The notes under the pieces are model-generated. The model worked only from the letters and a program-made list of their open reading frames with translations. It made no database searches and was not told the origin of the DNA. Below are positions 18,487 through 19,410 of a stretch of DNA of 52,903 nucleotides, piece by piece. The position numbers were made by a program, and so were the translations under genes. Source of the DNA: Chloroflexota bacterium. Lineage in GTDB: Bacteria; Chloroflexota; UBA6077. The stretch is from positions 1 to 52,903 of the forward strand of contig DAHVXI010000006.1 of NCBI GenBank assembly GCA_027356795.1, written 5' to 3'. The number at the start of each line of letters is the position of its first letter. The stretch's first letter is position 1.

Positions 18487-19410
18487 CTACTCCCGATACG
18501 CCTCGGGCTTCAGAACGCAGAGGTAGGGGAGATTGCGGTACAGCTCCCGGTAGTCCAGGCCGTAACCCACCACGAAGTCGTCCGGGATCTCGAAGGCCAC
18601 GTAGTCCAGGGGAACCTCCACCAACCGCCGGGCTCGCTTATCCAGAAGGGTGCACACCCGCAGGCTGGCCGGTCTGCGGGCTCGGAGGTAGGTGAGGATG
18701 TACCGGAGGGTGAAACCGGTATCCACTATGTCCTCCACCAGCAGCAGCTGCTCGCCCTCAATGGAGAGGTCCAGGTCCTTCAGGATCCGGACCGCGTCGG
18801 AATCGGAGCCGTTGCGGGTGTACTTGGTGATGAACATGTAGTCGGTGGTCGCCGGCACGCTCAACTGCCTCATCAGGTCGGTCATGAAGAAGGCGACTCC
18901 CTTCAGGATACCCACCAACCGTACCTGCTGGCCAGCATAGTCCTGGGAGATCTGGTTCGCCAGCTCCTGCACCCTTCTCTGGATCTCATCCGCACTGAGC
19001 AGGATGTGGTCGATGTTCTCCAGGGTGGTAGGGGTCAGCGCCCGGTAGCCGTACTTGTCCAGCAGACTCTGGTAGTCCTTCCGGTAGAGGAGCCGGACGT
19101 TCACCTCCGGATACAGCTCCCGCAGCTCCCGCAGCTTCCGGTTCTTCCTGGTGACCAGGCTCTGCTTCATGGTGGTCAACTCGACGTAGAGGTCGAGCCC
19201 CGGCAGGTAAAAGTCGGGGGTGAACATCTCGGTGACCCGATCCCCCTCCCAGCGCAGGGGAAAGGACCTGGGCTCGTACACCCACTTGATGCGGTAGAAG
19301 TCGAGGATGCGGGCGAACTCCTCCTCACTGGGGTGGACGAAGCGAGGCCTCGACCGTCGTCGATCCCGCTTGGGATAGCGGGTGCTCGGGACGGGCTGTC
19401 TGGCACTCAC
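18487..19410 (-). CDS. hpt: Hypoxanthine phosphoribosyltransferase fused to an N-terminal PD-(D/E)xK (phage endonuclease I-like) domain
   Basis: The C-terminal 180 aa are canonical HPRT (LLSADEIQRRV..LVGILKGVAFFMTDL..LLLVEDIVDTGFTL..VGYGLDY). The N-terminal 125 aa carry FTPDFYLPGLDLYVELTT. GTG start overlaps the PBP stop (GTGA). Confidence 0.9.
   Translation of the reverse strand: MSARQPVPSTRYPKRDRRRSRPRFVHPSEEEFARILDFYRIKWVYEPRSFPLRWEGDRVTEMFTPDFYLPGLDLYVELTTMKQSLVTRKNRKLRELRELYPEVNVRLLYRKDYQSLLDKYGYRALTPTTLENIDHILLSADEIQRRVQELANQISQDYAGQQVRLVGILKGVAFFMTDLMRQLSVPATTDYMFITKYTRNGSDSDAVRILKDLDLSIEGEQLLLVEDIVDTGFTLRYILTYLRARRPASLRVCTLLDKRARRLVEVPLDYVAFEIPDDFVVGYGLDYRELYRNLPYLCVLKPEAYRE

Follow-up and report, generated by a model that had tools for sequence, protein, structure and literature searches.

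Hypoxanthine-guanine phosphoribosyltransferase (HPRT) is a textbook purine salvage enzyme, a drug target and a target of (p)ppGpp. The control of HPRT by (p)ppGpp works via oligomeric interfaces, and the accompanying survey of 32 HPRT enzymes mentions neither Chloroflexi nor N-terminal extensions (PMC6783271). In Bacillus subtilis, tilS lies directly upstream of hprT and overlaps it, and the TilS-HprT complex binds DNA (PMC8152036). This pair and the known TilS/HprT fusions resemble the locus described here in that HPRT goes together with a nucleic-acid-binding partner, putative in our case, that is encoded just upstream, overlapping or fused. They differ from it in the nature of the partner, since TilS is a tRNA lysidine synthetase (a PP-loop ATPase) that is unrelated to the PD-(D/E)xK nucleases.

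The closest described relative of the partner found here is T7 endonuclease I (gp3; PF05367; structures 1fzr, 1m0d, 2pfj and 3cae), which is an intimately domain-swapped dimer (PMC3424549). The catalytic set of this enzyme consists of E20, D55, E65 and K67, and mutation of P54, D55, E65, K67 or E20 lowers cleavage at least 100-fold (PMC11833611). Steczkiewicz et al. (2012; PMC3424549) tabled Dehalococcoides and Thermomicrobium proteins under PF05367, and a phosphoribosyltransferase goes unmentioned in their main paper. In our literature searches no description of a fusion or partnership between HPRT and an endonuclease I-like domain was found.

The window, that is the whole stretch of 52,903 nucleotides that was analysed, contains a single HPRT and a single copy of the endonuclease I-like domain, and both are encoded by one gene, hpt (Table 1). 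A preliminary description of the same DNA had named the hpt product HPRT fused to a T7 endonuclease I-like domain, which it placed at 19036..19410 (residues 1-125), and the motifs on which it drew were recovered at the residues given there: S28-E29-E30-E31-F, IKWVYEP (41-47), MFTPDFYLPGLDLYVELTT (62-80), D66, E77, T79 and K82. The identity of the C-terminal part as HPRT was confirmed, as residues 136-301 matched the HGPRTase model TIGR01203 with 206.5 bits against an equivalog cut-off of 150. Pfam Pribosyltran matched the C-terminal part at 1.5e-25. In the full-length AlphaFold2 model (overall pTM 0.71) the HPRT part matched the HGPRT of Thermoanaerobacter tengcongensis (1r3u) in Foldseek with an E-value of 6e-24, a TM-score of 0.91 and 46% identity. 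The PRPP loop VEDIVDTG was intact and the loop sequence LLLVEDIVDTGFTL was present. The C-terminal 173 residues thus have the type I PRT fold of bacterial TIGR01203 enzymes such as 1r3u. The difference lies in the N-terminal domain, as the top solved HPRTs in the fold search were all stand-alone proteins of ∼165-200 aa.

Table 1. Features of the hpt gene and its upstream neighbour, with positions in the window.
Feature	Position	Strand	Basis or remark
Whole CDS, 307 aa + stop	18487..19410	-	N-terminal tail, endonuclease I-like domain, linker, HPRT
Residues 1-23, Arg-rich variable tail, predicted disordered	19342..19410	-	pLDDT <50 at residues 1-19; columns unconserved
Residues 24-121, endonuclease I-like PD-(D/E)xK domain	19048..19341	-	Homology searches, AlphaFold2 model, dN/dS
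E29, counterpart of T7 endonuclease I E20, invariant	19324..19326	-	Alignments
P65-D66, counterpart of T7 P54-D55, both invariant	19213..19218	-	Alignments
E77-L-T79-T80-M-K82-Q83, remodelled ExK segment	19162..19182	-	Alignments; codons checked on DNA
Residues 122-134, linker joining the two domains	19009..19047	-	pLDDT 58 (residues 121-130); variable columns
Residues 135-307, canonical hypoxanthine-guanine phosphoribosyltransferase	18490..19008	-	TIGR01203, Pribosyltran, Foldseek
Upstream PBP2-type penicillin-binding protein gene, context only, outside the system	19407..21566	-	Stop codon overlaps the hpt start

The N-terminal domain (residues 1-134) was compared with 177,635 PDB sequences using phmmer. 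Below an E-value of 0.03 the matches were chains of T7 endonuclease I alone (3cae, 0.004; 2pfj, 0.006; 1m0d, 0.008; 1fzr, 0.027). These alignments paired E29 with E20, P65-D66 with P54-D55, E77 with E65 and T79 with K67 of the T7 enzyme. The Pfam family Phage_endo_I (PF05367) matched residues 29-112 with 15.7 bits (E 0.012), below its gathering score of 29.1 bits, and it was matched at E<1e-3 by 19 of 150 family representatives, the best of them at 3e-5. Comparison with T7 gp3 in hhalign gave a probability of 78% (E 1.8e-5) for a profile of 24 family sequences and 88% (E 3e-6) for a more diverse profile of 14 sequences. When the T7 side was enlarged as well, the profile-profile comparison gave 87% (E 4e-6); the addition of 120 T7-like homologues kept the probability at no more than about 87%, because the listed T7 homologues are all at least 75% identical. 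The PHROGs endonuclease families matched the domain at 1e-7, and in NCBIfam no model covering it was found.

The AlphaFold2 model of residues 20-135 had a mean pLDDT of 85 and a pTM of 0.75. It consisted of a helix (27-38), a hairpin (strands 50-55 and 58-63), two further strands (67-69 and 74-78), a helix (83-99), a strand (105-108) and a last helix, an order that corresponds to the alpha-beta-beta-beta-alpha-beta core of PD-(D/E)xK enzymes. A Foldseek search of the PDB with this model returned weak matches (E 5e-3 to 1), and the leading ones were all PD-(D/E)xK nucleases: the R2 endonuclease domain, Bax1, PvuRts1I, Can2, AbaSI and I-Bth0305I. T7 endonuclease I itself was absent from these PDB matches, likely because the domain-swapped chains of its crystals defeat the superposition of a monomer. 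Among the predicted viral structures of BFVD, 31 matches below 1e-3 were found. The best was annotated 'Endonuclease I [Siphoviridae]' (E 2.1e-6, 30% identity, TM-score 0.62), and the lower ones comprised more Endonuclease I as well as DUF559/Vsr and homing-endonuclease entries. Small PD-(D/E)xK endonucleases of the Vsr, DUF559 and I-Bth0305I types were thus the next-best fold matches, with weaker E-values than Endonuclease I, and no sequence-level match between them and the domain was found in Pfam or the PDB.

When IMG/VR was scanned with the profile of the family, 296 phage relatives came up, and phage proteins from this database matched the HMM of the HPRT-linked family at 1e-17 to 1e-11. 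Five of the six phage proteins that were scanned also passed the Phage_endo_I gathering score, with 29.8 to 170.8 bits. As such proteins satisfy both profiles, the HPRT-linked domain is a divergent branch within the wider group of endonuclease I. It has the secondary-structure order of the T7 enzyme, to which it is linked via these phage intermediates, and the two have in common a YE motif, a PDF(L/Y)LP strand and, ahead of (Y/H)P, a basic helix. In the HPRT-linked domain this basic helix follows the ExK segment and reads K89-N90-R91-K92-x-R94. The domain differs from T7 endonuclease I in a hairpin that is ∼6 residues longer and carries a conserved W54, and in the absence of the C-terminal DNA-binding tail. 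Further residues specific to the HPRT-linked family are H26, S28, Y39, E61, Q83, L85, T87, K89, N90 and R91. Some of the IMG/VR relatives (L082, L087, L088, L092 and L133), in which the ExK motif is intact, often had extended N-terminal regions that contain NUMOD3 or CxxC repeats of a zinc-finger-like kind, which suggests that they are homing-endonuclease-like proteins rather than resolvases of the T7 type.

Sequence, profile, structure-model and bridging-homologue evidence agree on the fusion that the preliminary description had proposed. On these comparisons, residues 24-121 were confirmed as a PD-(D/E)xK domain with common ancestry to T7 gp3. Since the domain stays below the PF05367 gathering score and has no Lys at the K67 position, it is termed an endonuclease I-derived variant and not a member of that family. 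Within the PD-(D/E)xK superfamily it is the sister of Phage_endo_I.

The similarity could in principle have arisen by chance, or the N-terminal region could be an untranslated leader ahead of an internal start, a reading for which the low Pfam score would speak. This was ruled out by the coding constraint on the region, by its homologues and by the phage relatives that bridge it to endonuclease I, and we consider the chance of it negligible. Relative to L002, the closest relative with DNA compared (95% identity in the domain), dN/dS was 0.066 in the domain (residues 24-121) and 0.119 in residues 122-306, and it reached 0.35 in the 23-residue tail. Over 76 species the domain had a mean pairwise identity of 66.6% and its partner HPRT one of 55.9%, and among the 2850 species pairs the domain was the better conserved in 96%. 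These values indicate that the domain is translated and is under stronger purifying selection than HPRT. At least 8000 homologues keep the region in frame, and several independent homology tests were positive. The GTG start codon of hpt at 19410 overlaps the stop codon of the PBP2 gene as GTGA, and it is the sole canonical in-frame start between the upstream stop (∼19999) and the domain; no canonical start lies between residue 1 and the domain.

A longer N-terminus of the hpt product was considered and rejected, as the 196 open codons upstream of the GTG are without ATG, GTG or TTG and read as off-frame PBP2. This stretch of the hpt frame (19411..19998, minus strand) resembles a high-GC shadow frame, and its absence of starts is statistically unusual. 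The contig of L002 (JBLNDL010000094.1, match 6001-6306) carries the same fusion and is labelled 'Sphingomonadaceae bacterium MAG100'. The other relatives were all from Chloroflexota, Dormibacterota or Acidobacteriota, and the L002 contig is probably mis-binned or its label wrong.

The distribution of the domain was determined at three scales. In a search of 5.8 billion proteins at least 8000 relatives were scored; 120 relatives among the matches listed had a query cover of 91-100% and, where named, belonged to Chloroflexota or Dehalococcoidia, and many listed relatives had an extra N-terminal GAF domain in proteins of ∼481 aa. When 1.84 billion cluster representatives were searched with a profile, 2464 proteins matched at E<=1e-3, of which 314 reached E<=1e-30. 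Among the best 150 representatives, 26 had a Cytidylate_kin2 domain at the N-terminus and ended in the endonuclease-like domain; Pribosyltran was present in 14, UPRTase in 2 and GAF in 2, and many were short and may be fragments. In single representatives (within P0122-P0271) the domain occurs together with SMODS, DUF1697, PilO or an alpha/beta-hydrolase domain, combinations that could be real alternative architectures or artefacts of gene calling or assembly.

At the third scale a single genome from each GTDB species was scanned; at least 600 stretches matched, and the best 80 were examined. Domain and HPRT were encoded in one ORF at 67 of these 80 loci, in Dehalococcoidia, Thermomicrobiales, SAR202, Limnocylindrales, other Chloroflexota and Dormibacterota. 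At the remaining 13 loci the domain terminates its own gene, and a separate hpt of ∼180 aa starts 30-434 nt beyond it on the same strand. This arrangement was found in Bryobacteraceae, other Acidobacteriota and Methylomirabilota, all of which have a Cytidylate_kin2-like part plus the domain, and in one member of the Anaerolineae, where the domain is a stand-alone protein of 138 aa. Linkage to HPRT, by fusion or with hpt directly downstream, was therefore observed at all 80 of the best of at least 600 species loci, over several phyla. The domain is thus a widespread, near-obligate HPRT partner at the best 80 of at least 600 loci and not a one-off fusion; weaker relatives that are unlinked to hpt could exist beyond these 80. 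That the two are fused in some lineages and encoded by neighbouring genes elsewhere speaks for a partnership in function and against a chance fusion, and the cellular, housekeeping setting with HPRT as partner at all 80 of the best of at least 600 loci sets the domain apart from the T7 enzyme. The version in the window is the minimal form of the fusion, with neither a GAF domain nor a kinase-like module.

At twelve loci from Acidobacteriota and Methylomirabilota (L059, L066-L068, L071-L076, L079 and L080) the domain forms the C-terminus of a Cytidylate_kin2-like protein. In copies of the Bryobacteraceae type the GSGG motif of this kinase-like module is degenerate (MALLTISGDPASRWEE), and Pfam matches only the C-terminal part of the module. 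Relatives are named plain 'hypoxanthine phosphoribosyltransferase' in databases, and the JGI label 'bifunctional TilS/HprT' on GAF-bearing homologues appears to be a mis-annotation.

The gene neighbourhoods differed between lineages. The PBP2-hpt gene order of the window was not conserved elsewhere in the neighbourhoods of relatives that were compared. At 21 loci from Dehalococcoidia and other Chloroflexota, a gene for GAF, domain and HPRT came directly after nrdR (15 of 21) and a class II ribonucleotide reductase (RNR) of ∼870 aa, which points to co-regulation with dNTP synthesis. Several of these loci had ftsA-ftsZ upstream, and the ftsA-ftsZ-nrdR-nrdJ context recurred in Dehalococcoidia only. 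The nrdR/RNR-linked loci were L011, L013-L016, L019-L021, L024, L026, L029, L035, L038, L040, L043, L048-L050, L069, L078 and L081.

To describe the active site, conservation was counted over 137 representatives of clusters at 50% identity. E29, E46, P65, D66, F67, E77, T79, K92 and P101 were invariant in all 137; T80 and K89 were kept in at least 97%, and Q83 and N90 in 95-96%. Of the catalytic set of T7 endonuclease I the three carboxylates were kept, and the position of K67 was occupied by an invariant Thr. The PD and the E of the PD-(D/E)xK signature are therefore present and the K is shifted by three residues (E-L-T-T-M-K). The preliminary description had noticed that D66 and E77 are kept and that the ExK lysine is displaced; both observations stand, and E29 is likewise invariant. 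The ExK segment of the HPRT-linked family has the sequence E77-L-T79-T80-(M/L)-(K/R)82-Q83. Among the 137 representatives, 97 have K at position 82, 34 have R and 6 have some other residue (occasionally S or N). HMMER and hhalign placed T79 opposite the phage Lys with an insertion after T79, and MAFFT L-INS-i placed K82 opposite the phage Lys and made TT-x a three-residue insertion. The K67 position is thus Thr or, equivalently, TT-x is inserted ahead of the Lys, and the displacement by three residues holds under either alignment.

The canonical Lys was present in all 67 phage matches that covered the full domain, in 65 of them as E-x-K straight after the strand (PDFYLP...E-(I/V/T)-K). The TT-x segment was specific to the HPRT-linked family and absent from all phage relatives compared. 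Judged from the alignments, the three-residue change at ExK is a shared derived character of the whole HPRT-linked family. Three of the four catalytic side chains are retained in the HPRT-linked domain, the fourth having been re-positioned or lost.

This pattern could belong to a fully active, metal-dependent, structure-specific nuclease for DNA junctions or flaps or for RNA, in which K/R82 or another residue takes the role of the Lys and nucleic-acid breakdown or repair is linked to purine salvage. The invariance of E29, D66 and E77 in all members examined is as expected of an active enzyme, and K/R82 lies just ahead of the second helix, like K67 of T7, where MAFFT aligns it with the phage Lys. 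The basic helix is also found in the phage enzymes, the domain is more conserved than HPRT, and the 21 loci after nrdR and class II RNR provide a DNA-precursor context. The change at the catalytic strand, however, is universal in the family and absent from the phage relatives, and roughly one representative in four has Arg at position 82, which is occasionally S or N. Moreover, the products of a nuclease are not substrates of HPRT, and no precedent was found for the fusion of a housekeeping enzyme with a junction nuclease that is constitutively present. We hold an active nuclease to be possible but unlikely. As for a classical Holliday-junction resolvase, we do not think that the domain is one, and rank this below a module that regulates or targets HPRT.

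The opposite reading is that the domain is a catalytically dead relic without a ligand of its own, which serves purely to dimerize or scaffold HPRT or to link it to the GAF or CMP-kinase-like part. It fits the loss of the canonical Lys position, the variety of N-terminal modules, the domain-swapped dimer of T7 endonuclease I (PMC3424549) and the dependence of HPRT regulation on oligomeric interfaces (PMC6783271). A scaffold, however, would have no need for E29, D66, E77, T79, T80, Q83, K89 and K92, which are conserved across phyla. Inactivated PD-(D/E)xK domains usually lose their acidic residues, whereas these are kept here. RecC is an example of such an inactivated domain (PMC3424549). A pure scaffold therefore appears doubtful to us, and a weaker candidate than the nuclease.

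The reading that we prefer, although we would give it no better than an even chance, is that the domain acts as a dimer, depends on metal, binds nucleic acid or phosphate groups, and serves to regulate or target HPRT. The invariant carboxylates E29, D66 and E77 may still hold a divalent metal, and Thr-Thr, K/R82 and Q83 could form a phosphate-binding pocket together with the basic helix. Candidate ligands would be a nucleic-acid backbone or a nucleotide-type molecule, for example the HPRT ligands PRPP, PPi or (p)ppGpp. Judged solely by T7 endonuclease I, the domain probably forms an intertwined dimer that would hold two HPRT subunits. The module would then couple the activity or oligomeric state of HPRT to the ligand, or localize the enzyme, and in other lineages the input may pass from the N-terminal sensor, a GAF or cytidylate-kinase-like domain. 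DNA binding by TilS-HprT (PMC8152036) and the oligomeric control of HPRT (PMC6783271) would be precedents for the logic of such a module.

A bolder and rather improbable proposal, which we place between the active nuclease and the scaffold, is an ancient two-part machine of several phyla. Its rewired site (E-D-E plus TT-x-K/R-Q) would cleave or sense a particular nucleic-acid structure or a nucleotide signal and thereby switch salvage, or it would tether salvage to sites of replication or repair near the NrdR/RNR genes. Such a machine, if real, would be a new mode of control for a textbook enzyme and new chemistry for the PD-(D/E)xK fold. The Chloroflexota, Dormibacterota and Acidobacteriota include abundant lineages of soils, the subsurface and the sea, and their HPRT goes together with a partner of nuclease origin whose conservation exceeds that of the enzyme. 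The ligand or substrate of this partner could point to a so far undescribed connection of purine salvage with the state of nucleic acids, and to a new variant of the PD-(D/E)xK active site. The finding would also correct the annotations 'hypoxanthine phosphoribosyltransferase' and 'bifunctional TilS/HprT'.

The remaining neighbours of hpt in the window were an ORF of 519 aa (16807..18366, plus strand), which is convergent with hpt and had no Pfam match at E<=1e-5, and two genes on the minus strand upstream of the PBP2-hpt pair (21583..27906). The latter encode a protein of 1100 aa with a YfhO-like C-terminus, followed by a protein of 1006 aa with NPCBM and glycoside-hydrolase (melibiase/GH31-like) domains.
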